A DNA stretch of 64,000 bases from an uncultured archaeon (GTDB taxonomy: Archaea > Asgardarchaeota > Lokiarchaeia > Sigyniarchaeales > SOKP01), in assembly GCA_964486045.1 (NCBI GenBank), contig CAZALK010000006.1, positions 32,001 through 96,000 on the forward strand, read 5' to 3'. This document shows positions 22,557 to 36,307 of this stretch, in pieces. The translations under genes and the position numbers were made by a program. Below the pieces are notes generated by a model. That model saw nothing but the letters and a program-made list of their open reading frames with translations, was not told where the DNA came from and made no database searches. Every line of letters starts with the position of its first letter. Within the stretch, counting starts at the first letter, position 1.

Positions 22557-24713
22557 TTGAATGAAAGAAAAAAGGATTCTGAAGAGGAATATGTATTCGA
22601 ATTTTATGATGAAGAATACAACAATACTTTAGAAGAAGAAGTTCCAGCTGCTCTAGAAGATTACAATGAAATAAACTTTAGTGAAGATTTAAATAAAGAA
22701 CAGCTTGAAATAATTGATAATATTAGAGGGCCAATGTTAGTTATTGCTGGTGCAGGAAGCGGAAAAACAAGGACAATTACTTTTTCAGTAGCAAAACTCT
22801 TGTTATCTCAGGTTAAACCAAGTGAAATTATGCTCGTAACATTTACTAATAAAGCAGCTAATGAAATGATCAAAAGGGTGGAAAATCTTTTAGGTAAGCG
22901 TCCAAAAGGTATTTGGGCCGGGACATTTCATTCAATTGCCAATCGTTTTATTCGAAGATATGCAAAAATCCTAGGTTTGAAAACAAATTATACTATAATG
23001 GATGAAACCGATTCAAGAGCTTTAATGAAGCTTTCAATTGAAAGAGCTAATGTAAAAGAAATCGAAGAACGCTTTCCTAATGCTAGAATGACCAAAGCAA
23101 TCTTATCCTTTTCAATAAATTGTCATAAATCGATTCGAGAAATCATTCTTTGGAAATACTCTCAATTTAACAGTGAAAATGTGTTAAAGAAATTAGAAGA
23201 AGTTCACAAGATTTATGGAGAGAAAAAAGCTAAAGATAATTTAGTTGACTTTGATGACTTATTAATTTATTGGAACCGTTTATTAGATGAGAGATCAGTT
23301 GCTCAGTTAATAGCAAGGAATATAAAATATGTACTTGTTGATGAATATCAAGATACAAATTATATCCAAGATGAAATTATATATAAGATTGTAAAACAAA
23401 ACCCAGATCATAATGTCATTGCGGTAGGAGATGACGCTCAGAGTATATATGCATTTCGTGGTGCGAATTTTCAAAACATCCTGAATTTTGAAAAAAGATA
23501 TCAGCATTGTAAGAAATATACAATAACTTATAATTATAGAAGCGTTCCACAAGTTCTAGGTCTAGCCAATAACTCGATCCAACATAATGTGAAGCAATTC
23601 AAAAAAACTATGCAAACAACTCGTCCTAGTGGGATATTACCATATCAAGTTAATGTTGGAGACGATAAAGACCAAGCCAATTTTATTGCAAACCAAATTT
23701 TGAAATTACGTTCAGAAGGATATGACTTAGAAGATATGGCAGTTCTTGTTCGGGCAGGATTTCATTCACTACGAATTGAACTTGAATTAAGAGCTAAAAA
23801 TATACCCTACGAAGTACGAGCAGGGGTGGCATTTTTTGAAAAGGCACATATTAAGGATATGATTGCTCATTTACGTATTATAGAAAACCCTTATGATGAA
23901 ATTTCATGGTCTCGAATTTTCACTATAATTCAAGGTATAGGAACCTCATCGGGAACAAAAATATTTGAAGAAATTTCCAGAGTTGAAAATCCAATAGATC
24001 TATTAATAAATAAGCTGTTCTATGCAGAAAAATTAAAAGGATCTAGGATCTCAAAGGAAGGCATAAAAAATACAATATCCTATGCAAAGAAGTTGGTAGG
24101 GTTTAACCCAAACGATATCCCCTCTGAGACCATAAAAAAACTTATGAAAGTGTTGGAGGATCATATCAAGTCAAAATATGATAACTGTCAGGATAGAATT
24201 GATGATCTTAATCAATTAAGTATATTTGCTGGTAATTTTCAAACTATTCGTAAGCTGCTTGAAAATCTGAGTTTAAATAAATCCAATTTAGAATCGAAAA
24301 CTGTTTTAATGGGTAGTCAACAAGATGAAGAAAAACCTATGATCCTATCTACTATTCACCGCGCAAAAGGTCTTGAATGGAGAGTTGTTTTTATCCCGAT
24401 GCTATGTGAAGATTTCTTTCCTTCTTCAAGAGTTAAAGGGGATTCTGAAGGAATTGAGGAAGAACGTCGTGTATTCTATGTAGCCGTAACCAGAACTAAA
24501 GATCAACTCTATTTGATATCTCCCTCTTTAATTCAAGGATCTAGAGGATATCAGACTATGCGAATTTCCCCTTTTATTACAGAATTGAATCCAAAAGTCT
24601 ATAAGAAGTCATCAGTACAGATTAGATCCAAGACAAGAGATATGATAAAGGGGTCAAGTAAGCATCAAAAATCTCTATTTCAAACAGCTGATGAATTATT
24701 AAAAGAGGATTAA
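22557..24713 (+). CDS. uvrD: UvrD/PcrA-family SF1A DNA helicase
   Basis: AGAGSGKT, TFTNKAA, GTFHS, VDEYQD, VGDDAQSIYAFRGA, NYRS, TIHRAKGLE, EERRVFYVAVTR. Confidence 0.92.
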   Translation: MNERKKDSEEEYVFEFYDEEYNNTLEEEVPAALEDYNEINFSEDLNKEQLEIIDNIRGPMLVIAGAGSGKTRTITFSVAKLLLSQVKPSEIMLVTFTNKAANEMIKRVENLLGKRPKGIWAGTFHSIANRFIRRYAKILGLKTNYTIMDETDSRALMKLSIERANVKEIEERFPNARMTKAILSFSINCHKSIREIILWKYSQFNSENVLKKLEEVHKIYGEKKAKDNLVDFDDLLIYWNRLLDERSVAQLIARNIKYVLVDEYQDTNYIQDEIIYKIVKQNPDHNVIAVGDDAQSIYAFRGANFQNILNFEKRYQHCKKYTITYNYRSVPQVLGLANNSIQHNVKQFKKTMQTTRPSGILPYQVNVGDDKDQANFIANQILKLRSEGYDLEDMAVLVRAGFHSLRIELELRAKNIPYEVRAGVAFFEKAHIKDMIAHLRIIENPYDEISWSRIFTIIQGIGTSSGTKIFEEISRVENPIDLLINKLFYAEKLKGSRISKEGIKNTISYAKKLVGFNPNDIPSETIKKLMKVLEDHIKSKYDNCQDRIDDLNQLSIFAGNFQTIRKLLENLSLNKSNLESKTVLMGSQQDEEKPMILSTIHRAKGLEWRVVFIPMLCEDFFPSSRVKGDSEGIEEERRVFYVAVTRTKDQLYLISPSLIQGSRGYQTMRISPFITELNPKVYKKSSVQIRSKTRDMIKGSSKHQKSLFQTADELLKED

Positions 24714-24866
24714 CTAAAAGACTTATGAAGTTAAGATGGTTATTCAATTCAATATTAAGATTCATGTTAATTTTGCCATAACACAAATTATAAAAATCCT
24801 TAATGAGATATTTCGAGGCGGTTATTTCCCAATTTTTAATTAAGTTTTTTCACTTCGGTTTATGAC

Positions 24867-25067
24867 CTACATACCATTCTTCTCTCGAATTTCATTCTCA
24901 GAATATTTAATATCGCAAGATTTGCAATAATAGTCCCAATCTGTATTAGCTTTCAGTAAATTTCCACAATTAGGACATTGAATATAAATTTTGAAGTATT
25001 TGAAGTTTAAATTTAAAGAATCAATACGCTTTTTATTAGTGTTTATGTTGTTTGATTTAATACCCAT
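24867..25067 (-). CDS. Small zinc-ribbon protein
   Basis: CPNCG ... YCKSC. Confidence 0.5.
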   Translation of the reverse strand: MGIKSNNINTNKKRIDSLNLNFKYFKIYIQCPNCGNLLKANTDWDYYCKSCDIKYSENEIREKNGM

Positions 25068-25403
25068 TTTTTATCAAATTCACCTTTTTTATTTTTTTTT
25101 TTTAGTTTAATTTTTTGATTGAATCATTCTTTTTTTCTAAATATTTAAAAGAAAATATTACTCAGATAGGAGGGGCCTCAGAAATGAAGAAATTTTTCAA
25201 AAAAATTTTGAATTGTTTTTTGTATCTTTATTTTAATTTTTTTTTAAAAGTAGAAAAAGTAAAAGGATCTTAAAACTTAAAATTAAATTAATAATCAGTC
25301 TGAGCCTTAAAATTTTAAATATTAAAAGACTATTTTAGATTTACAGAGGTTTATTTTATAATTCGGATAAAAGTTTCCAACTCAAAAGATAAAATTTGAA
25401 ACT

Positions 25404-28400
25404 ATGGGCAATAATAATTTTAATAAGCAACTTTTAACTCGATATACAGAATCGGAGTGTAAACGACAGTTGTTTTTGATCTTGGGGCAAGGTAGACCAG
25501 ATTTATGGTATAAGGATAATCGACCTATAGAGAGTATAAGACATAAACGCCTTCCAACTGATCTACTCGAACGTTTAGGTCAAATATTTGAGCAAAAAGT
25601 ATATTCCCATCTTATACGGTATAATGGAGCCAAATATAATGTTGAACAAAATGGTAAAGTAGGTGAAACCTATTTAAATCCACAAATATTTGAACAATTT
25701 TATGATGAATTAAAAAATGACACGAACTTAGAAGACCTAATGCTACTAGAATTTCAATATGAAACTCCAGAATATTTTGTCAAGAATATTTTCCCCCCCA
25801 AAAATAACTTGAATGAAATACCGGTTAATTATGGAGAACAAAGACCTGATATTATTATTATCGGAAATTCTTTTAATAAAAAAAAGAAAAAAGTGTTAGA
25901 ATTACTTTCTAATGGAACAATTCGAGAAGTACCAAAGAGTGAACAGGGTATTCGGTTTGGAATTTCAATTATTGATGTGAAAAATACTAGAGAAGACCAT
26001 ATTGGAAAAAAGCAATTTATTGAGATATTGTTCTATCTTTGGACTATGGCTTCTTATTTAATAGAAAAAAGTTTGAATGATAAGTTTTTTGTCCGTATGG
26101 ATTTTAATGGTATTTTTCCTCAATATAGTGAGGAAAATTTAAAAAAACTCCTTACTTTAGATGATCTTCTGGATTTAACAATTCAATTACATTGGGACCA
26201 GATCCATCAAGTTTTCCTTAATATTATTCAAAAAATTAAAAGACTATGGAAAAAAGCTCCTCTCCCTATAGAATCGATACCAGTAAATATCCAAGCATCT
26301 TGTGGATTTTGCTATTTTATTGAAGATTGTAAAAAAACGTTAGGAATAGATCGCGCGCCCTCAGATTGGTCATTACAATTAATTCCATATACATCATTCT
26401 CTATCTCTCAACAATTACTAGACTTAGGATTTGAAACTATTGGAGATGTTTTTACAAATATTGATTCAGTAACGGTTGGAAATACTCCTGAACCTCTTTA
26501 TGCGGAATTACCTCTATTGAAATTAAAAGCATTAGCTCTGATTAATAACCAAGTAGTGATCCCTCAACCAGGAGAGATACATACATATTCTATTCCAAGA
26601 TTTACAACTATTTCTATAACTTTCGCGGTAGAAAAAGATCCCTCAAATGAGAGAGTGTACGCAGCTGGATTCTATGTTGATATGATTGCTTCTGGAAAAA
26701 TCCCTTTTGGGGGTGTTTTCAATAACTGGTGGAAGATATGGAAAGATGCGCTTAAGTTTAACAAGGAACCTAAAGATATTCAAGCTGAATTAAATAAAAA
26801 TCTTATCAGATCTATACCTCTTGTAGTAGTTGAGCAGTTTTTATATCTTCTAAATAAACTAAAAACCATAATTATCTATTTGAAAGGAGATAAAACCACC
26901 GCTGGTACACCGAGAAAAAATACTGAAATAATATATCAATTTGCAATTATCAACAGATGCCATACTAATGAAGAAGAAATAAAGTTTACAAGGCATATTA
27001 TTAAACAGCTCTATTTGATATTTGAGTTATGTAATGTTGTAGAAAATTATGTAGTGACCGATGGATATAAAGCGGGAACTTATTATGGCCCTACAACTAG
27101 CCTATTTTATTGGTCCAAAAGGCAACTGGACAATTTTCAGTCTATGTTGGAGCGAAACCTTAATAGTATCATTGATGATATTGATGTATGGAGGAAATAT
27201 TTAGCAATTATCTCTTATTTTACACCATCAGACTCAGAAGTTGCTCATCCTTATCAACACAAAAAACTTTTCAATGTTCAAGATTTTGCTGAGACAATTC
27301 TTGGATTTCCAAGTATTATTAACTACACGTGGCATGAAATCGCTAAAATTACTCAGGGAACAAATAGCAGTAAAAAGTATTGGATACAGCATTTTAATTA
27401 CATGGATTTTAATAATTGGTATGTAATGCTTGTTGAAGATGATGATTCTAAGCAGAAAACTATCCGTTTAGAACTACGTAAACAAGTGATGCATAAAATC
27501 CGTACTATTAACAAACTACGAAAGGCTTTCCAAATAGAGAGTAGGTTTAATATATCGAAGAATGCGCATGTGATCAGTAAAGAACAAATTCGAAGAGCAG
27601 TTTTATCTTCTGAGTATCATTCAATCGCACAAGTCTGGTATCTCTTTTCAAAACTGACAGGCTCAATAGAGGAAATGGATAAAGAATATCTCCGTACTAT
27701 TTATCCCGAATTCAGTATTGCCAAATTGGTAGCAGCAAAAATTACTAATTTAGTAGTACAGAAAAGTGGAACCAAAGTTTATTATGAATTTCAAATGAAA
27801 GGACTTTCTAGTAATATGAAAGTTCGACCTAACGACAGAGTTTTACTTATTCCCAATGAAAAACGAGATATGAATGCTAATCGTAGAAACGAATCTTGGA
27901 AAGTAGCTATCGAAACTATGGAGTACTTGTCTCAAATCAATGGATATAATGTAAAGACTAAAGAAACAAATACTAATTTATTTGATTTAATCAAAAAGGA
28001 TAAAGAAATTTCTGAGAGTCCAGAAGATTTAGATTGGTATTTGTATCCCACATATATAGATGCATGGTCAAAGAAACTATACGGAGAAAAAGGATTACTA
28101 CAAAGACATAATATGGGGAGATCCTGGCTTGGCTCTCTGCTTTCCTATATGTGGAAAATCAGATCCAAACAAGAATTATTTTGGCCAGAAGAATGGACTT
28201 TTAGTGCGCCCTCAGTCTATTTATATGCACCAAATCTCCTTTTAAATATGGCAAGCAAAACTAAAGAAACCTATGATAAATTGCTAACTCAAATAGACCC
28301 TACTCCTGATCCTTCTCAAAAGAGAGCTATTCAGTTAGCTTTAGAAAAAGTTATTTCTGGTATACAAGGTCCTCCCGGTACTGGTAAATCTCAAACTATC

Positions 28401-29888
28401 GCTGCTTTAATTGATGAATATTATATAAGAAGAGTAAATAGCGGTAAAAAATCTGTTAAAATTCTAATAACAGCGTTTTCTTATGCTGCGATACGAGTCC
28501 TCGTCAAGAAAATTAGAGAAGGGAAAGATAAAAACGGTAAACCTAATCCCTCTTCTAAAATTCAAATGATTTTTCTTCGCTCAATTTATCAAAAACCTAT
28601 ACCTTCTCGACCCGGAAGTAGAAATGTGGATGATTTAGTTAAAAGTGGGGCCACATGGAAATTAAATGGACAATCTAGGACAGTTACTGAAACAATGCCA
28701 TTAGAGGAATCTTTAGAATCAAGTTATATAATATTTGCTAATGCACATCAGCTTTATCATCTACCTGAACGGGTTGAAGAAGATGAATTTTCTTTTAATC
28801 TTATATGTGTTGATGAAGCAAGTCAACTCCCAGTAGATAATTTTATGTCTAGTCTTCAATTTGTTGACAAACATAACTTCGTAATTAAATCTAAATTTTC
28901 CGGTTCCCCAAAAACAAAGATTACAGACATCAATCAAGTAAAACAATTATCTATTGAAAATAAAATTGATCCAAAGAATCTTACCAAAATCGTAATCGTG
29001 GGCGACTTTAATCAGCTTCCCCCAGTTCAACCAGTTCCGCCACCCAAAAACCTAGAAAGTATTTTAAAAAGTTTATTTGTGTATTATGTAAAAAATCATG
29101 AAGTTCCGAATTCGCAACTTCAAATAAATTATCGAAGTCATAAGGATATAGTAGAGTTCACTTCCCTCTTAGGTTTTTATAAAAATTTAAAACCAGATCC
29201 TAATAATATGGATAGATTATTACAAGGGGAAATTAAAAACGTTGAGGAAAGCTGGATTCAAGAGATCCTCACACCCCAAAAAGTTGTTTCATGCATTATA
29301 CACAACAAAAAGTTTGAAATCGGTGTTAGCGCACTAGAAGCTTTTCTTGCAGTAAAAATTATATTAGGCTATTTTAAAATGGTACGACCTAATTCAAAAG
29401 TTCAAGAACGCGTATTTTGGAGAGAAACTGTTGGCGTTGTAGCCCCCCATAATGCACAAGGACGCTTGATAATAAGACAACTATATGATAAACTCATAGA
29501 TCCATCAAAGCCATTAACGTCTCTTAATCATTCTGAGTTAATGAATCTCCTGATTAATACAATTTATTCTGTTGAAAAATTTCAAGGGTCTGATAGAGAA
29601 CTCATTATCTCATCAATTGGGATTTCTGATAAGGATCAGCTTAATTCTGAGAGTGAATTTATATATAATATAAATCGGTTCAATGTTCTTACTTCAAGGG
29701 CAAAAAGTAAGATAATATTGATAGCAAGTAAGAGATTCTTCAATTTCATACCCAAAGAAAGGAATATCATGGAAGAAGCTGCACATATCCGTAATTATGC
29801 ACTAAATTATTGTAATAAATCTGAAAAACTTCACATTAAAGATGAGAAAAATTTAGATGAGTTAGTTGAATTTAGATATAAAGATTAA
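25404..29888 (+). CDS. Dna2/TM0106-like Fe-S PD-(D/E)xK nuclease fused to a Upf1/Dna2-type SF1B helicase
   Basis: N-terminal ESEC plus CGFCYFIEDC (C...CxxCx5C), RPDII ... IIDVK ... EILFY. Helicase motifs GPPGTGKS, VDEASQ, VGDFNQLPP, NYRSH, APHNAQ, VEKFQG.DRE, RFNVLTSRAK. Confidence 0.85.
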   Translation: MGNNNFNKQLLTRYTESECKRQLFLILGQGRPDLWYKDNRPIESIRHKRLPTDLLERLGQIFEQKVYSHLIRYNGAKYNVEQNGKVGETYLNPQIFEQFYDELKNDTNLEDLMLLEFQYETPEYFVKNIFPPKNNLNEIPVNYGEQRPDIIIIGNSFNKKKKKVLELLSNGTIREVPKSEQGIRFGISIIDVKNTREDHIGKKQFIEILFYLWTMASYLIEKSLNDKFFVRMDFNGIFPQYSEENLKKLLTLDDLLDLTIQLHWDQIHQVFLNIIQKIKRLWKKAPLPIESIPVNIQASCGFCYFIEDCKKTLGIDRAPSDWSLQLIPYTSFSISQQLLDLGFETIGDVFTNIDSVTVGNTPEPLYAELPLLKLKALALINNQVVIPQPGEIHTYSIPRFTTISITFAVEKDPSNERVYAAGFYVDMIASGKIPFGGVFNNWWKIWKDALKFNKEPKDIQAELNKNLIRSIPLVVVEQFLYLLNKLKTIIIYLKGDKTTAGTPRKNTEIIYQFAIINRCHTNEEEIKFTRHIIKQLYLIFELCNVVENYVVTDGYKAGTYYGPTTSLFYWSKRQLDNFQSMLERNLNSIIDDIDVWRKYLAIISYFTPSDSEVAHPYQHKKLFNVQDFAETILGFPSIINYTWHEIAKITQGTNSSKKYWIQHFNYMDFNNWYVMLVEDDDSKQKTIRLELRKQVMHKIRTINKLRKAFQIESRFNISKNAHVISKEQIRRAVLSSEYHSIAQVWYLFSKLTGSIEEMDKEYLRTIYPEFSIAKLVAAKITNLVVQKSGTKVYYEFQMKGLSSNMKVRPNDRVLLIPNEKRDMNANRRNESWKVAIETMEYLSQINGYNVKTKETNTNLFDLIKKDKEISESPEDLDWYLYPTYIDAWSKKLYGEKGLLQRHNMGRSWLGSLLSYMWKIRSKQELFWPEEWTFSAPSVYLYAPNLLLNMASKTKETYDKLLTQIDPTPDPSQKRAIQLALEKVISGIQGPPGTGKSQTIAALIDEYYIRRVNSGKKSVKILITAFSYAAIRVLVKKIREGKDKNGKPNPSSKIQMIFLRSIYQKPIPSRPGSRNVDDLVKSGATWKLNGQSRTVTETMPLEESLESSYIIFANAHQLYHLPERVEEDEFSFNLICVDEASQLPVDNFMSSLQFVDKHNFVIKSKFSGSPKTKITDINQVKQLSIENKIDPKNLTKIVIVGDFNQLPPVQPVPPPKNLESILKSLFVYYVKNHEVPNSQLQINYRSHKDIVEFTSLLGFYKNLKPDPNNMDRLLQGEIKNVEESWIQEILTPQKVVSCIIHNKKFEIGVSALEAFLAVKIILGYFKMVRPNSKVQERVFWRETVGVVAPHNAQGRLIIRQLYDKLIDPSKPLTSLNHSELMNLLINTIYSVEKFQGSDRELIISSIGISDKDQLNSESEFIYNINRFNVLTSRAKSKIILIASKRFFNFIPKERNIMEEAAHIRNYALNYCNKSEKLHIKDEKNLDELVEFRYKD

Positions 29889-29906
29889 AAGTAAAGAAGA
29901 TATAAT

Positions 29907-31406
29907 ATGAATGCAAAATTTGTCCATATTGCTGATCTTCATCTCGGAAAAAGGCAATATAATAATAATGAGCGATATCTAGATTACTTTCGGGCTTTTA
30001 AATGGATTCTAAAATTTGCAATTCAAGAAAGGGTTGATTTTATCTTAATTGCGGGAGATTTATTTGATAACCGTAAGATAAGTCCGAATGTTTTGACTGA
30101 AGTTTTCTATATTATTCGAAATTTTAAAAACAAGTCACAAGAAGAGCTTAATCGTGAGATCCCATTAATCTGCATTGAGGGAAATCATGACACTCCTATT
30201 TATTCTACTCAATCTTGGATGACATTTTTAGCAGATTTAGATCTAATTATTCTCTTATCTGGAGATTATGATAAAAACAGGAAGATTATCAGTTTTGAAC
30301 CCTATGATGCTAAAACTCGCCGGGGCGGAATGATACAGATAAAAAATGTCAAAATCTATGGAGTTTCTTTTTATGGAAGCTCTACAATTCATCTATTCCA
30401 ACCGATTATTGAAGCGATTAAGGAAGATACCCCCAAGTTAAATATTTTAATGATGCATTTTGGAGTAGTAGGCCAAGATTCGTCTAAACCAGGTATTGAA
30501 TTTTCTGAGCCTTTTAAAAATTTGCATACCAAAGTTGATTATTTAGCTTTAGGTCATTACCATAAGCTGTATCAACTTCCTCGTAAAAATCCATGGATTT
30601 ATAATCCTGGATCCCTAGAAATTACAGATATTAGGGAAGCATTTGATTATTTTGAGAAGGATGCTAAAAGAGGAGCAATTCTTATATCTAGTGATGAAAA
30701 AATATATCAGAGTAAGACTATAATATGCGAGAATGGTGCTACCGATCTAAATTTGATACCGAATCGTAAATTCTTACGGGTTAGTCCTATTAATATCGGA
30801 GAAACTACATCATTTGATGAATTAATAAAACTTGTGATGGATACAATTAAAAGGTGGGGAACTCCAACAAAAAATTCTCCGATGGCTTCTGCTCCAAACG
30901 ATCTAAATTGTCCCATTCTTTTCTTTAACATTGAGGGTGAGGTTAATTATTCTCGTTTAGAAGTAAATATAAATCAACTTCGACATGAAATCTTGAATGA
31001 ATTTGCTCTTCTTGAAGTTAGGATCTTCTCCCCATATCTAATTTCCAGCTTAGATAATATAAAAATACCTCAAGGAAAAAAAACTATAGATGAAATAGAA
31101 TTTGAAATTTTTTCTGCCATGGTAAAAGAAAACTCAATGTTCGAGCATGTTGAAGAAGAAGTAGTAGATTTAATGAAAAATTTAAAGAGGGAATTATTAG
31201 TTGGTAAACCTAATTATTCCGCTTTAAAAGAACTTATCAAAGAATGGTGCCTGCATAATGCTGGTGAATTTAAAATCCAGGATAAATTATTTCAATCAGA
31301 ACAAGATGAAACACCTGAAGTAGAGAAAATTGTGGAAAGTGATGATGATGGAGATTTAGATCTCGATGATTATATTGATAATATTGAAGAAGAAGGGATA
31401 GATTAG
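29907..31406 (+). CDS. mre11: Mre11/SbcD-family nuclease
   Basis: ADLHLG, AGDLFD, EGNHD, ALGHYH, NPGSLE; acidic tail. Confidence 0.88.
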   Translation: MNAKFVHIADLHLGKRQYNNNERYLDYFRAFKWILKFAIQERVDFILIAGDLFDNRKISPNVLTEVFYIIRNFKNKSQEELNREIPLICIEGNHDTPIYSTQSWMTFLADLDLIILLSGDYDKNRKIISFEPYDAKTRRGGMIQIKNVKIYGVSFYGSSTIHLFQPIIEAIKEDTPKLNILMMHFGVVGQDSSKPGIEFSEPFKNLHTKVDYLALGHYHKLYQLPRKNPWIYNPGSLEITDIREAFDYFEKDAKRGAILISSDEKIYQSKTIICENGATDLNLIPNRKFLRVSPINIGETTSFDELIKLVMDTIKRWGTPTKNSPMASAPNDLNCPILFFNIEGEVNYSRLEVNINQLRHEILNEFALLEVRIFSPYLISSLDNIKIPQGKKTIDEIEFEIFSAMVKENSMFEHVEEEVVDLMKNLKRELLVGKPNYSALKELIKEWCLHNAGEFKIQDKLFQSEQDETPEVEKIVESDDDGDLDLDDYIDNIEEEGID

Positions 31407-31407
31407 A

Positions 31408-34128
31408 ATGATAATTACAAAAATTGAACTCGAAAATATTACAACTCACAAAAAGACAACAATTGATTTTCAAGCCGGATTAAATTTGTTATATGGTCCC
31501 AATGGAACAGGTAAATCTACAGTTCTTAAAATGATTGGATTTGTACTATTCGATTTTCTTCCAGGTAAACAAAAAGATTATACTAGGAAGAGCTTTGCAA
31601 AATCACCCAAATTTGGGAAGGTTAAGCTTTGGGTTGTGGGTTTAAACGACGATCAATTTGTTATTCAGAGAACTCTAGCAAAAACTAAACAGTTAATTGA
31701 AGTTTCAGATGCAAGGACAGGAATTATTGAAAAAGGAATAAATAGTACCGCACAATTACAGGAATGGTTAAAAAATCAATTATCTTTAAGTCCGGATGTT
31801 GATTTAGCAAATCTATTTAAAACTTCTGTGGGTGTCCAACAAGGTACTTTTACAGAACCATTTTTACGCACACCGCAGAAAAGAAAAGACTTTTTTAATC
31901 CTGTTTTACAACTTGATGTATACAGAACAGTTTGGTCAAATCTTCGTAATATTATAAAAGAATTTAACAGAGATTTACAACAAGCTGAAAATAAACAAAC
32001 AGAATTAGAAACTAGATTAGAAAATAAGGAAGACTATGAAAAGAAGAAGACACTAAACGAATTAAAGCAAAATAATGCCCGAACTAAACTTCACAAAACA
32101 AACCTTGAAATTGCTGAGTTAAATGAACTAGTTAAAAAACAGAAGCATATACGTGATAATTTGAACAAGATTCAAAATTCTCTTGAAAATTTGGAATCCA
32201 GACGTATCGACCTACATGAATCAAATAAAAAATTAAACACAAATTTAAAGAGCGCACAAACAGCAGAGATAGTTTGTATGGAGAATTTAACTGATTATAA
32301 GCGTTTTAGAGAGTTGACTAAAGATGAACTCATATTTAGGAGGCTTAATGAAGAATTGAAAGGATTACAGGAAGAAATTATAGAATTAAATCAACACCTT
32401 ACTAGAATAAATACTCTTAAAGAAAATATCGAACCCCAAATTGAAAATATACTTAAAGATAAAGCAAATTTACCTACATTAGAAAAAGAAAGCGAAGAAT
32501 ATCATAATCTTCAAAACCTAATTCAAGTTCAAAGAGATAAGCTCAGTAAGATAGAGGTTGCTGAAGACCTTCAGAGTAGATTGAAAACTCAATATCTTGA
32601 AAATTTAGCAAAAATTGAAAAACTTGAAACACTATTGAAAGAGCTCCCAGAATTAGAAAAACGGGATTTAAAGGTTGAAGTCCTTAGTGAAAAATCAAAT
32701 GAAATCAAACTTAAAATTAATTCATTAGAAACAGAAATTACTACATATCTCACTGACAAGAAAATTTCAAAGGATGGATTATGCCCGATTCTAAACATAG
32801 AATGCAATAAAGCAGATGGTAGCTCCTTTGAGGTGATTTTTCAAGAAAAGATTGAAAACCTAAAAAAAAATCTTATCCCGATTAAATTTGAATTTGAGGA
32901 ACTAAATAAAACAACAATAAATTATGACAAATTCCAGAAGAAATTATCTGAGTTAAAGCTGAAAGAAAGAGATTTTCAAAACCTAAGAGAACGACAGCTT
33001 GTGTTTGGAAACGAGATACAGAAAAATAAAACTCAAATTGATTTAAAAAATGAAGAAAATGAAATTTTAAAAAAATTAAAAATCCAACAAGAAATACTAG
33101 AACCATCCGTGGAAAAATATAATGTTCTAAAGGAAAAGGTTGAAAAGCAACTACCAGAATTCCAAATAAAGCTAGAAGAATTACAAAAACAACTTGTACC
33201 ACTCAGAAAAAAATTGACACCTTTAGAAAAAGAAAGAGAAAAATTAATTCATGTACCCGAGAAATTAAAAGAGTTTAATGACGAGTTAGACAAACTTAGA
33301 GAAAATCATGATAAATATCAAATGAACAAGGGGATTGCAAGAAATCTGCAAAATATCAAATCTGACCTTGAAAAATGTAAAACAAAACTTTCAGAAGTCG
33401 ATTTATTGCTTAAAAACCAAACAAAAGAAAATAAATTATTAAGTGAGCAATTTAATGAGAAAGAATTTGCCGTTATTAAGAGTAAATTACTAAAGTTAGA
33501 AGAAGCAAAAGGAAATTTAAAGAATCAAGTTTTAGATGCAGTTGAGAATTTAGCAGATGCCGAGGAGAAATTAAAAGTACTTAAAGAAACAGAAGAAGAG
33601 TTAGCATTGGTATTGAGCAATATAGAAGCTTTAATATTTATGAAGAATTTCACTAAAATAATACGTAATTATTTTGATAATGCAGGGCCAAAAATCTCAG
33701 AGGTTCTGCTTGTCAATATCAATATAGAAGCAACAAGCCATTATAGAAATATCATGGACGATCCAAACGTGATTCTGGAGTGGGAGCAAGATTATCAAAT
33801 AAAAGTAAAAACCTCAGAAAACGAAAAAGTGTTTCATCAGCTCTCAGGAGGAGAACAAATGGCATCAGCATTAGCTATCCGATTAGCTATCTTAAAAGTG
33901 CTTTCAAATGCGGAATTTGCCTTTTTTGACGAGCCGACGATGAATCTAGATCCAAACAAGCGGGAAAATTTAGGTAAAATTATTCAAAGAATTAAGGGTT
34001 TTAAACAATTCTTTGTGATTTCACACGACGATACATTTGAAGAGTATGTGGAAAATGTTATTGAATTCTCCAAAGATGAGAAGGAAATAACTAAAGTTGA
34101 TTTTATTACTAAAAATAAAGACTTATGA
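31408..34128 (+). CDS. rad50: Rad50/SbcC-family SMC-like ATPase
   Basis: GPNGTGKS, Q-loop VQQG, coiled coil with central CPILNIEC, LSGGEQ, FFDEPT, ISHD. Confidence 0.88.
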   Translation: MIITKIELENITTHKKTTIDFQAGLNLLYGPNGTGKSTVLKMIGFVLFDFLPGKQKDYTRKSFAKSPKFGKVKLWVVGLNDDQFVIQRTLAKTKQLIEVSDARTGIIEKGINSTAQLQEWLKNQLSLSPDVDLANLFKTSVGVQQGTFTEPFLRTPQKRKDFFNPVLQLDVYRTVWSNLRNIIKEFNRDLQQAENKQTELETRLENKEDYEKKKTLNELKQNNARTKLHKTNLEIAELNELVKKQKHIRDNLNKIQNSLENLESRRIDLHESNKKLNTNLKSAQTAEIVCMENLTDYKRFRELTKDELIFRRLNEELKGLQEEIIELNQHLTRINTLKENIEPQIENILKDKANLPTLEKESEEYHNLQNLIQVQRDKLSKIEVAEDLQSRLKTQYLENLAKIEKLETLLKELPELEKRDLKVEVLSEKSNEIKLKINSLETEITTYLTDKKISKDGLCPILNIECNKADGSSFEVIFQEKIENLKKNLIPIKFEFEELNKTTINYDKFQKKLSELKLKERDFQNLRERQLVFGNEIQKNKTQIDLKNEENEILKKLKIQQEILEPSVEKYNVLKEKVEKQLPEFQIKLEELQKQLVPLRKKLTPLEKEREKLIHVPEKLKEFNDELDKLRENHDKYQMNKGIARNLQNIKSDLEKCKTKLSEVDLLLKNQTKENKLLSEQFNEKEFAVIKSKLLKLEEAKGNLKNQVLDAVENLADAEEKLKVLKETEEELALVLSNIEALIFMKNFTKIIRNYFDNAGPKISEVLLVNINIEATSHYRNIMDDPNVILEWEQDYQIKVKTSENEKVFHQLSGGEQMASALAIRLAILKVLSNAEFAFFDEPTMNLDPNKRENLGKIIQRIKGFKQFFVISHDDTFEEYVENVIEFSKDEKEITKVDFITKNKDL

Positions 34129-34146
34129 TCAGTTTGGGATGAATAG

Positions 34147-34182
34147 AAAAAAAAAAAAAAATTCGGTTACATAACACCGAAT
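34147..34182 (-). terminator. Hairpin plus long U-tract terminator of the 34217-35188 gene
   Basis: ATTCGGT-N8-ACCGAAT inverted repeat adjoining a run of about 15 A (T on the minus strand). Confidence 0.55.
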
Positions 34183-34216
34183 AATCATACTATTTATAAC
34201 TACAATTTTATCCTAT

Positions 34217-35188
34217 CTACCACCAAGACACTAAAAATTCCCATTGGGGTAACTGCATGATTTCTTGCCAAGCATTTGCTCCCACACCGTTGTACCAACT
34301 GAATTCATGATCCAGAGTATGAGGTCCCCATCCTAGAGTCCATGGGTCGTAAATTTGATAAAAGATTAGAACCATAGTGGGTTCACCGATTAAAACACCT
34401 CCCTTATCGTACCACCAGAAACTACTTAATTCATTTTCCCATCCATCTAGTAGAATTGTCATTGACCAAGGTAAATTAAAAATTTTATCCTTTTTTTCTT
34501 GGTCTGTTTGGATCATCCCCATAAGTACATAGTTTGTTTCAGCGACGTTATACTCCCTATTGGGGCGTATTATATTATCCCCATTAAACCATTCGTTTAA
34601 TACCGTCTCTTGTTCTTGTTTGATAAAATCAAATTGGTCAGCACCAATTTCTTCATAGGTTGAGATGACAGTTAAAGTACCCCATTCACCTAGTGGGTTG
34701 TTAGGTCCCAAATCTCCGGTATCACCGTCAGTATACCCAGCCCAAGCCCAGTTTCCCCCCAAGGTGAAAATTATGGTGATTTCTGCTTCGGGGTAAGTAG
34801 CGGTTTGGGTTTTAACAACACCTATACCGACCATAATCCAAACATACTGCCAGTATTGCTCTGAATTTGGGTCCCACCACCATTCTAGATAAAAAGCCTC
34901 TCCCTCTTTGAGCTTTCCATGAGATATCATAACTTCCTCGTTTGTAATAGGATCTAAATATATTTTTTTGAAATCTGCCTTTCCCAACCAACTGCTGCCA
35001 TAATCATGTTCAACATGTGCATTGATCAAGACTCTGGCTTGCGAATCCCAAAGGTCTGGTCCCTCTGCATTCATATGAACTTTTACAGCTTCACCAGATT
35101 TAACGGTATTTACTGAAGTAGCACTTGCAATAGTGCTTACCAAAAAAAGCAATAACATAGCCATTATAACTTTTGATTTCACTTTCAT
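34217..35188 (-). CDS. Secreted Trp/Gly-rich hypothetical protein
   Basis: Signal peptide MKVKSKVIMAMLLLFLVSTIASA. No recognised family. Confidence 0.65.
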   Translation of the reverse strand: MKVKSKVIMAMLLLFLVSTIASATSVNTVKSGEAVKVHMNAEGPDLWDSQARVLINAHVEHDYGSSWLGKADFKKIYLDPITNEEVMISHGKLKEGEAFYLEWWWDPNSEQYWQYVWIMVGIGVVKTQTATYPEAEITIIFTLGGNWAWAGYTDGDTGDLGPNNPLGEWGTLTVISTYEEIGADQFDFIKQEQETVLNEWFNGDNIIRPNREYNVAETNYVLMGMIQTDQEKKDKIFNLPWSMTILLDGWENELSSFWWYDKGGVLIGEPTMVLIFYQIYDPWTLGWGPHTLDHEFSWYNGVGANAWQEIMQLPQWEFLVSWW

Positions 35189-35456
35189 TATTATTCTCTC
35201 CTTTGATTTTTTATTTGCTCTTATGTTTGTTTTTCCAAATTTTTTGATCGATAATGATCAAGAATTAAGTATATCACTTAGAAATATAAAGCTTATTTCA
35301 AGAATAACCAGTAAAAATTAAAAATTAGTGGTAAATCAAATATTTTAGTGAAAAAATTCACGCTTTATGGTTATCATTTTAAAAAACTATTGCAAAATAA
35401 AATGAGTTCAAATTTTAAGAATAGAAAAATAAAAAAAAAGTGGTTGAAAAATAAAC

Positions 35457-35657
35457 TTACAAATCGCGCGCTTTAACAGTTTTTCGATTATTACCTTTAG
35501 CACGTCCAACAGCTTTATCAAGTATATCCATGATGATTGCGTTGAATTCAGTTCCATCTAATACAGCGCTACTTGTATTACAAGCATTTCCTTTAATGTA
35601 TTCTCTTACTTTTGACTTTACGAAGAGTGGCTCAACCTTTCCTCCTTTTTTTGCCAT
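35457..35657 (-). CDS. Histone-fold protein with truncated alpha3 (non-nucleosomal type)
   Basis: LFVKSKVREYIK ... ILDKAVGRAKGNNRKTVKARDL with RKT....D clamp motif. Ends immediately after it. Confidence 0.8.
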   Translation of the reverse strand: MAKKGGKVEPLFVKSKVREYIKGNACNTSSAVLDGTEFNAIIMDILDKAVGRAKGNNRKTVKARDL

Positions 35658-36019
35658 TTTACATCTTCCTCTTTTTTGAAATTTTTTAGATTTTTATTAA
35701 ACTAAGGTTTAAAATTGATTTGAATAAATTACAGTTTGTTAATTATTTATTTTTTATCTGTACTATTAAATCTTTGCTATTTTAACTAGATTTTTTCATA
35801 TTCTTTTTCTCTACTGGATTTTGGGAAGGATTTTTGAAATCTAATTGTTGAATAAAAGTTGTCAAAACAGAGAAAAAGTCTAAATTCGTATCCAAAAAAT
35901 AATGCACATACTTATTTAATTACTTCTATGATAGAGGATTAAGTGTTAAGGCTAAAATATAATAAAAAAAAAGTAGGTTTGTTGAATAAAGTTATTTCAC
36001 AGAGAAAATGTAAATCTAT

Positions 36020-36307
36020 TTACTTTGGCGGAGCTAGTACAATTTCAATACTTGAGACGTTGTTTGTTTGTCCATTTTCTCCCTCTAATTGTTCAGTGCT
36101 AAGTGCTATATCTTTATATTCAGTGCCCTTTAAGAATCTATTTCTTAAAATTTCACATACATCAACGGCATGGGAAATGGCTCTACCTCGGGCTTTCACA
36201 GTACAATCTTCACCCTTGTTAAGGATCATCATCGTAGCCATCACGTAGTTCATGGTAGGACGGCGACCGACAAAAACAGCATTTTCTTCTCTAGGTTTAT
36301 CGTTCAT
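36020..36307 (-). CDS. albA: DNA/RNA-binding protein Alba
   Basis: VFVGRRPTMNYV, VKARGRAISHAVDV.E, NVSSIEI.L. Confidence 0.93.
   Translation of the reverse strand: MNDKPREENAVFVGRRPTMNYVMATMMILNKGEDCTVKARGRAISHAVDVCEILRNRFLKGTEYKDIALSTEQLEGENGQTNNVSSIEIVLAPPK

Follow-up and report, generated by a model that had tools for sequence, protein, structure and literature searches.

The operon described here belongs to an uncultured Lokiarchaeial archaeon (Sigyniarchaeales, SOKP01; GenBank assembly GCA_964486045.1), and in it the genes for Mre11 and Rad50 directly follow a gene for a very large nuclease-helicase. The window, that is, the whole stretch of DNA analysed, is 64,000 nucleotides long (contig CAZALK010000006.1, positions 32,001 to 96,000 of the forward strand); coordinates given without a locus number refer to it. 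We use BIG as a working name for the large protein. The three genes are co-oriented, with intergenic gaps of 18 nt and then 1 nt. Their open reading frames (ORFs) and gaps, as listed in the initial annotation, were reproduced exactly, and neither herA nor nurA is among the operon genes (ORF list, Pfam), as had also been claimed:

25404..29888, plus strand: BIG (P0001), nuclease-helicase of 1494 amino acids (aa), from the ORF
29907..31406, plus strand: mre11 (P0002), archaeal-type, 499 aa, from the ORF and from profile hidden Markov model (HMM) and PDB matches
31408..34128, plus strand: rad50 (P0003), archaeal-type, 906 aa, from the ORF and from HMM and PDB matches

BIG is composed, in order, of a Cas4-like PD-(D/E)xK nuclease, an (HhH)2 domain, a DEDD/PolB-exonuclease-like fold, a beta-barrel, and an Upf1-type SF1B helicase. 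Residues 1-950 matched nothing in Pfam, NCBIfam, or PADLOC, and no nuclease or exonuclease family was matched when 31 diverse members of the BIG family were compared with Pfam at E 0.5. The N-terminal domains were recognized from AlphaFold (AF2) models of residues 1-950 (pLDDT 84, pTM 0.81) and of residues 1-395 (pLDDT 93); Foldseek with the whole 950-residue model gave weak matches only, and it was exhaustive structure comparison together with the separate 1-395 fold that resolved the domains:

25404..26393, plus strand: BIG residues 1-330, Cas4-like PD-(D/E)xK nuclease with a four-Cys (predicted Fe-S) staple
26346..26558, plus strand: BIG residues 315-385, predicted (HhH)2 DNA-binding domain
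26601..27713, plus strand: BIG residues 400-770, DEDD/DnaQ-type (RNase-H-like) 3'-5' exonuclease fold
27735..27959, plus strand: BIG residues 778-852, beta-barrel before the motor, like domain 1B of Upf1-type helicases (AF2 strands)
28308..29732, plus strand: BIG residues 969-1443, SF1B (Upf1/Sen1/Dna2-type) helicase core (AAA_11 4.6e-13, AAA_12 2e-19)

The four-Cys layout around a PD-(D/E)xK core that had been read from the letters alone is borne out by both conservation and fold. Residues C19, C300, C303, and C309 (laid out as C...CxxCx5C) and E116, D149, D191, K193, E207, and Y211 (with the active-site motif D191-x-K193) do not vary among 31-49 homologues, some with as little as 27% identity, and the domain is structurally closest to Cas4 (7mi4_A, Z 10.8; 8d3l_I, Z 9.9 and also the top Foldseek match, probability 1.0), followed by the RecB-family nucleases RecE (Z 7.9), MGME1 (7.6), AdnAB (7.4), Dna2 (7.3), EXO5 (7.1), and AddB (7.0). 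Language-model look-alikes, taken as a lead only, are PDDEXK_1/Cas4/TM0106-like clusters (0.88-0.95). Since the cysteines and catalytic residues are invariant to 27% identity, the Fe-S-stapled nuclease is very probably active. The segment initially called HhH-like does fold as (HhH)2, resembling the N-terminal domain of Rad51 (3lda_A, Z 8.2, rmsd 2.5 over 61 residues) as well as the RAD51C N-terminal domain, the RNAP alpha-CTD, and NusA AR2.

The third domain had been described as a degenerate RNase-H-like region; the fold stands, and the adjective may not. Residues 400-770 resemble the exonuclease domains of family-B polymerases (8d0b_F, 4m8o_A, and 5mdn_B, Z 13-14) and the DEDDh exonucleases 3'hExo, ERI2, TREX1, ExoI, and RNase T (Z 10-11), and their language-model look-alikes are RNase_H_2 clusters (0.82-0.84, again only a lead); hhalign of this region against the two PolB exonuclease domains of the same genome gave a probability of 0.1. 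E525 is invariant, E410, D412, and E547 are at least 90% conserved across homologues, and H663-x4-D668 is conserved within the Lokiarchaeial set, which argues against degeneracy. E410-x-D412, E525, E547, and H663-x4-D668 occupy plausible DEDD positions in the secondary structure of the model, and these acidic residues may be catalytically equivalent to those of DEDD enzymes. Local matches that Foldseek found between the 950-residue model and Upf1 (9qdq_A, probability 0.97) or Sen1 (8ram_O, 0.99; 5mzn, 0.96), which come without residue ranges, probably cover the beta-barrel. The helicase is complete and of the Upf1/Dna2 type, as had been proposed, with all motifs intact (GPPGTGKS, VDEASQ, GDFNQLPPV, NYRSH, EKFQGSDR, and LTSRAK).

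The partners of BIG are divergent members of the archaeal Mre11 and Rad50 families, rather than the bacterial SbcCD on which a defence system had been suggested to be built; we call them divergent because both score below the NCBI equivalog cut-offs. For Mre11 (Metallophos 7.8e-17) the top NCBIfam models and PDB relatives are archaeal Mre11s, the best solved relative is Pyrococcus furiosus Mre11 (1ii7, 2.3e-25), phosphoesterase motifs I-V can be read as DLH, GDLFD, GNHD, H(FG), and GHYH, and the score against Mre11_Pyroc is 104 bits, under a cut-off of 600. Rad50 aligns end to end with the archaeal model PRK03918 (positions 1-888 of 906; 176 bits, under a cut-off of 700), has the Rad50s of Methanocaldococcus jannaschii and P. 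furiosus as its best PDB relatives, retains Walker A (GPNGTGKST), Q-loop, signature (LSGGEQ), Walker B (FFDEPT), and H-loop (ISHD) motifs, and is the sole Rad50 of the genome. At the apex of its coiled coil the canonical CxxC hook is replaced:

32782..32805, plus strand: Rad50 coiled-coil apex 'CPILNIEC' (C459-C466), a Cx6C hook

The trio-type Rad50s have CPx5C at this position in 22 of 24 cases, and CPxC only in L048 and L067. The C-terminal tail of the window Mre11 is strongly acidic (…DDDGDLDLDDYIDNIEEEGID, window 31260-31403) and could possibly be a peptide on which BIG or a single-strand-binding protein docks.

Archaeal mre11-rad50 genes are typically clustered with herA-nurA, and eukaryotic resection couples MRN/MRX to Dna2. 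BIG was initially called Dna2-like, and in general layout it is: as in eukaryotic Dna2, one polypeptide combines a four-Cys PD-(D/E)xK nuclease with a beta-barrel and an SF1B helicase C-terminal to it, and a genetic connection with Mre11-Rad50 exists, Dna2 being a partner of MRN/MRX in long-range resection. This order of parts, the resemblance of the nuclease to Dna2 (5ean_A, Z 7.3, 191 residues aligned), and our failure to find another Dna2 candidate in the genome, where the one other AAA_12 helicase is part of a kinase fusion, would all suit an Asgard orthologue or ancestor of Dna2 and an operon that is a forerunner of the MRN/MRX-Dna2 pathway. We nonetheless regard such descent as very improbable. 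Specifically, i) the Dna2 model PF08696 has no match in BIG (E 0.1), in the whole genome (E 0.01), or in 31 family members (E 0.5); ii) the structural match to Dna2 is level with those to RecE, MGME1, AdnAB, EXO5, and AddB, the nearest fold is Cas4 (Z 10.8), and the four-Cys staple is shared but unspecific, occurring in Cas4, AddB, and EXO5 as well; iii) in phmmer searches of the PDB Sen1 (6.4e-9) is a better match to the helicase than Upf1 (about 9e-6) or Dna2 (1.2e-5, and over the last 60 residues only); iv) BIG has about 450 extra residues between nuclease and barrel (HhH2 plus the DEDD fold), a TM0106-like layout with no counterpart in the aligned Dna2 nuclease domain (chain residues 126-422); and v) the family is mostly Lokiarchaeial and Myxococcotal, rare elsewhere, and present in 31 of 301 Asgard genomes. 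The layout is thus like that of Dna2 but the signal of the Dna2 family is lacking, and orthology of BIG to eukaryotic Dna2 is not supported. The kinase fusion just mentioned is a protein of 1129 aa with an Upf1-type SF1B helicase (L105:4772-8161, contig C8), encoded between two large proteins without a Pfam match.

The most apt description of BIG is an Upf1-type SF1B helicase with a TM0106-like module fused to it. In proteins of the TM0106 family (TIGR03491) the parts appear to follow one another as they do in the first half of BIG, with a Cas4-like nuclease, then an HhH-type segment, then an RNase-H-like domain; unlike BIG they are short (269-462 aa in atlas clusters) and by size cannot contain a helicase. 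To our knowledge they are uncharacterized. The resemblance is one of layout: BIG matched no NCBIfam model at E 0.01, TIGR03491 included, and neither PF01930 nor PF13482 was matched by 31 family members at E 0.5. No structure matches better than that of Cas4 itself, whose four-Cys cluster geometry and PD-(D/E)xK site BIG shares, but BIG is fused to other domains, does not lie beside cas genes (none of the flanking genes, which include a UvrD-like helicase, Alba, and an S26 peptidase, is a cas gene), and lacks a PF01930 match.

Full-length BIG homologues of about 1490 aa occur throughout Lokiarchaeia. At 50% identity the family of the N-terminal module falls into 158 clusters out of 1.84 billion representatives, almost all of them about 1500 aa in length, and a scan of species-representative genomes yielded 63 BIG loci. 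The initial annotation had staked its proposal on the gene trio being conserved elsewhere, and so it is: in the main Lokiarchaeial clade Mre11 and Rad50 follow BIG at each locus that reaches far enough, except L027, and in a maximum-likelihood tree trio-type BIG forms one clade (SH-aLRT 99) in which 26 of 27 rows are linked to Mre11-Rad50. Trio loci include those of Lokiarchaeum ossiferum (L043), Harpocratesius (L048), and Promethearchaeum syntrophicum MK-D1 (L038), and the flanks of the trio vary between lineages (63 loci). Over 24 loci the identities of BIG, Mre11, and Rad50 to the window copies co-vary (r = 0.86-0.92). These comparisons indicate that BIG, mre11, and rad50 are inherited as a unit. 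In MK-D1 an oxidoreductase-like gene and a citrate-transporter gene stand between BIG and mre11 (L038:14962-17575), and BIG is 1653 aa long.

The site at which the trio lies in the window can be compared directly among genomes of the same genus, where the flanking genes occur in the same order and encode proteins 58-86% identical. On the left these are genes for proteins of 707, 268, 122, and 97 aa, then a 718-aa UvrD-like helicase; on the right they are a 66-aa ORF, Alba, an S26 peptidase, and genes for proteins of 261, 321, and 207 aa:

22557..24713, plus strand: UvrD/PcrA-type SF1A helicase (Pfam), left border of the variable site in the genus
24717..35411: swapped segment of about 10.7 kb, without DNA homology to same-genus genomes (blastn)
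34217..35188, minus strand: 323-aa ORF inside the swapped segment, without a family match
35457..36307, minus strand: right border, consisting of the 66-aa ORF (35457-35657) and the gene for the chromatin protein Alba (36020-36307; NF003088, 1.7e-33)

In blastn comparisons with L095, L096, L098, L099, and L100, homology ends at about 24716, the stop codon of the UvrD gene, and restarts at about 35412. What lies between is a 690-nt upstream spacer, BIG, mre11, rad50, and the 323-aa ORF. In the relatives, the interval between the UvrD-like gene and Alba is occupied by one of two other cassettes. Variant A is NurA(378)-HerA(530)-Mre11(434)-Rad50(695), in opposite orientation and accompanied by HD and OB genes (G302, G303, and G207); variant B is HerA-like(582)-401aa-Mre11-like(436)-Rad50-like(698) (G304 and G192). 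The site corresponds to L096:5902-12040 in G303, L095:8107-14256 in G302, L100:4843-11281 in G192, and L099:4403-10833 in G304. Against their variant A counterparts, the window Mre11 and Rad50 reach only 25-31% identity. Within the genus, nurA-herA-mre11-rad50 has been replaced in situ by BIG-mre11-rad50.

Several details of the site may be added. At least three very divergent cassettes are found there within one genus, variants A and B being as different from each other as from the trio, with HerA proteins 26-27% identical. The 323-aa ORF has no counterpart in the relatives or at the other BIG loci compared. The UvrD-like helicase is 73-80% identical in relatives, and Alba 93-96%; the 66-aa ORF is conserved and has no family match. 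Membership of the UvrD-like gene in the module was considered and rejected, the gene being found at 0 of 63 other BIG loci. A blastn search against the same-genus loci revealed no gene remnants of a displaced cassette in the swapped segment, and a search of the borders revealed no integrase, tRNA gene, or Rfam RNA. In G030 (L101:1150-5348) a 637-aa OLD-family ATPase/TOPRIM gene lies directly upstream of the UvrD-like helicase, the gene order of Gabija, and this pair adjoins a variant A operon.

The cassettes also tend to exclude one another. Among 154 genomes of the order, BIG was found in 37, the variant A HerA in 47, and the variant B HerA in 54; 126 genomes have at least one of the three, 115 exactly one, 11 two or more, and in 28 none was detected. 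A or B occurs together with BIG in 7 genomes where 23 would be expected. Within the genus, A was found in 24 of 53 genomes and B in 25 of 53, with both in one genome, counts that rest on Mre11, family-model, and HerA queries. In the closed genomes attributed to L. ossiferum (G321), P. syntrophicum MK-D1 (G324), and Harpocratesius (G213), BIG is present, and neither A nor B was found. We read this distribution as a pattern rather than as a formal test, the genomes being related and the metagenome-assembled ones incomplete. In the genome of the window itself, neither a variant A nor a variant B HerA was found, and the search for a second mre11-rad50-herA-nurA locus that the initial annotation had called for found none.

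We conclude, with moderate confidence, that BIG-Mre11-Rad50 is probably a double-strand-break end-processing module in which BIG supplies the motor and nuclease in place of HerA and NurA. Of the two functions first proposed for the operon, resection and defence, resection fits best because the trio occupies the nurA-herA-mre11-rad50 site of same-genus genomes and the cassette types are largely exclusive; and since one block has taken the place of the other in the same position and almost all genomes retain a block of this kind, functional equivalence of BIG to HerA plus NurA is the simplest reading. Like the nurA-herA-mre11-rad50 operon of Sulfolobus and Pyrococcus, the trio encodes a helicase, a nuclease, Mre11, and Rad50 together; the two share a chromosomal site in the genus, are largely exclusive, and have archaeal-type Mre11 and Rad50. 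They differ in that a hexameric FtsK/HerA-type ATPase plus NurA corresponds to a single BIG chain (SF1B, Cas4-like, DEDD-fold), and in that the trio Rad50 has a longer coiled coil (906 aa, compared with about 695 aa) and a Cx6C hook.

We propose that Mre11-Rad50 would recognize, tether, and open or clip the DNA end; that the SF1B motor, if it behaves like Dna2 and other enzymes of its class, would load on the 5'-terminated strand and move 5'->3', perhaps in contact with Mre11-Rad50; that the 5' strand would be fed through the N-terminal Cas4-like Fe-S nuclease and degraded, leaving a 3' tail for RadA; that the (HhH)2 domain may hold the duplex or a junction; and that the DEDD-fold domain may either trim the 3' strand, if it is active, or act as a DNA-binding scaffold. 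In the former case BIG would be a two-nuclease machine like AddAB/AdnAB. These enzymes and RecBCD likewise join a motor to a RecB-family nuclease for end resection, the AddB nuclease is Fe-S-stapled (3u44_B, Z 7.0), that of AdnAB also resembles the BIG nuclease (9np6_A, Z 7.4), and BIG may likewise have two nuclease sites. AddAB, AdnAB, and RecBCD are, however, heterodimers or heterotrimers with SF1A motors (RecD being SF1B) and no adjacent Mre11-Rad50 pair, whereas BIG is a single SF1B chain with a DEDD-fold second domain.

Several observations weigh against a resection module of this kind, and the first group concerns the bond between BIG and its partners. BIG is unlinked in the Loki paralogue clade, in Heimdall, Kari, and other archaeal rows of the tree, and in a bacterial (mostly Myxococcota) clade, and no recurrent neighbours of these unlinked genes were found. 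In G225, of the same genus as the window, a BIG 48% identical to ours has metabolic neighbours and no adjoining Mre11-Rad50 (L027; L097:6932-11407, contig C5). BIG therefore needs no adjacent Mre11-Rad50 pair, since stand-alone family members and the G225 gene exist. It could accordingly be asked whether BIG works independently of Mre11-Rad50, in fork or flap processing or in the removal of RNA/DNA hybrids, adjacency reflecting merely the co-regulation of genome-maintenance genes. An RNase-H-like fold and an Upf1/Sen1-type helicase, both found also in RNA-directed enzymes, would suit such a role. We think it quite unlikely, however: 26 of 27 clade members retain the closely spaced linkage, the divergence of the three proteins goes hand in hand, and a whole set of helicase, nuclease, and Mre11-Rad50 gives way to the trio as a block.

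Two further observations concern the stand-alone genes. The Myxococcota/'Deltaproteobacteria' metagenome-assembled genomes carry stand-alone full-length BIG homologues, 25-36% identical and forming their own clade (L049-L051, L055, L056, L058, L060, L062, L063, L065, L066, L068, L070, L076, and L078). G225 also has a variant A operon fragment on another contig.

A second group of contrary observations concerns HerA and NurA themselves. The genome encodes a stand-alone NurA of 426 aa (L016:9516-10796, contig C14), which is a separate paralogue because it is core to the genus regardless of cassette (29 of 30 genomes, 66-84% identical), and HerA-like ATPases stand alone on contigs C1 and C17; the HAS-barrel (PF09378) has no match in the genome. 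This core NurA and the HerA-like ATPases could take part in resection, and with both encoded elsewhere the module, initially proposed to act independently of HerA and NurA, may not do so. Moreover, a BIG homologue coexists with A or B in seven genomes (at least two of which, G225 and G183, carry BIG as a solo or paralogue copy), and the genomes counted are related rather than independent, so that exclusivity statistics overstate the case. The stand-alone NurA has methyltransferase and CAAX-protease genes as neighbours and lies near a Sec23/24-like protein (L016:12954-14612). The genome also encodes a second Mre11 paralogue of 387 aa, 33% identical to that of the trio and located beside a PHP-domain protein (L015:9639-12529, contig C8), which recurs in 27 of the 30 same-genus genomes searched.

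Finally, defence loci, too, typically have a patchy distribution and exchange very divergent cassettes at a single site. The trio might therefore act mainly against viruses or plasmids, Mre11-Rad50 sensing foreign ends or hairpins and BIG degrading the invader processively; its repair-like composition would then be an instance of the general overlap of repair and defence, as with RecBCD. In keeping with this, the at least three cassettes exchanged within the genus are very divergent, distribution is patchy across genera, the window BIG does not group in the tree with the BIG of its same-genus relative (which implies transfer), and the Gabija-like OLD and UvrD arrangement stands beside the site in G030. 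A PADLOC search of the trio, suggested at the outset, gave partial core matches and no full-length match to a defence system: the BIG helicase core matched MkoA (1.2e-29) and DpdJ, and the ABC head of Rad50 matched LmuB (1e-35), mad3, and PtuA.

We judge a mainly defensive role to be unlikely. The PADLOC matches involve only generic helicase and ABC-ATPase cores, none of them on the N-terminal 950 residues of BIG; the archaeal Rad50 model gives Rad50 a higher score and is matched along its full length, and this is the only Rad50 of the genome. The presence of at least one variant in 126 of 154 genomes, and of exactly one in 115, resembles an obligatory function and not an optional island; the replaced set is the established archaeal resection operon; and the borders carry no integrase, tRNA, or known RNA. 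Repair and defence are not mutually exclusive readings. A bolder version, which we put forward tentatively and with more doubt than conviction, is that the three Lokiarchaeial cassettes are interchangeable and are swapped horizontally, like alleles of one chromosomal site, driven by resection-inhibiting viruses; that BIG-Mre11-Rad50 would serve repair and defence alike, as RecBCD does; and that BIG would be a new kind of single-chain machine with two nucleases, one Cas4-like and one DEDD-like, and one SF1B motor.

No description of the operon was found in the literature searched. BIG appears to belong to a known class, the helicase-nuclease partners for end resection, with a combination of domains previously undescribed in that literature. 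A 2026 review treats Asgard end resection as uncharacterized, describes the Asgard NurA as 'completely uncharacterized', and raises the question of its continued cooperation with HerA-Mre11-Rad50 (PMC13748450).

We wish to stress that the Dna2-like layout of BIG should not be taken as the ancestry of a eukaryotic pathway. The occurrence of BIG in Myxococcota adds a further case of gene sharing between Asgard archaea and Myxococcota. The natural three-way replacement of cassettes at one chromosomal site provides a ready-made genetic argument for functional equivalence. For resection in the closest archaeal relatives of eukaryotes, BIG is a concrete candidate for biochemistry, and in the cultured Asgards MK-D1 and L. 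ossiferum the main partner of Mre11-Rad50 may be an enzyme of a family that has no Pfam model.

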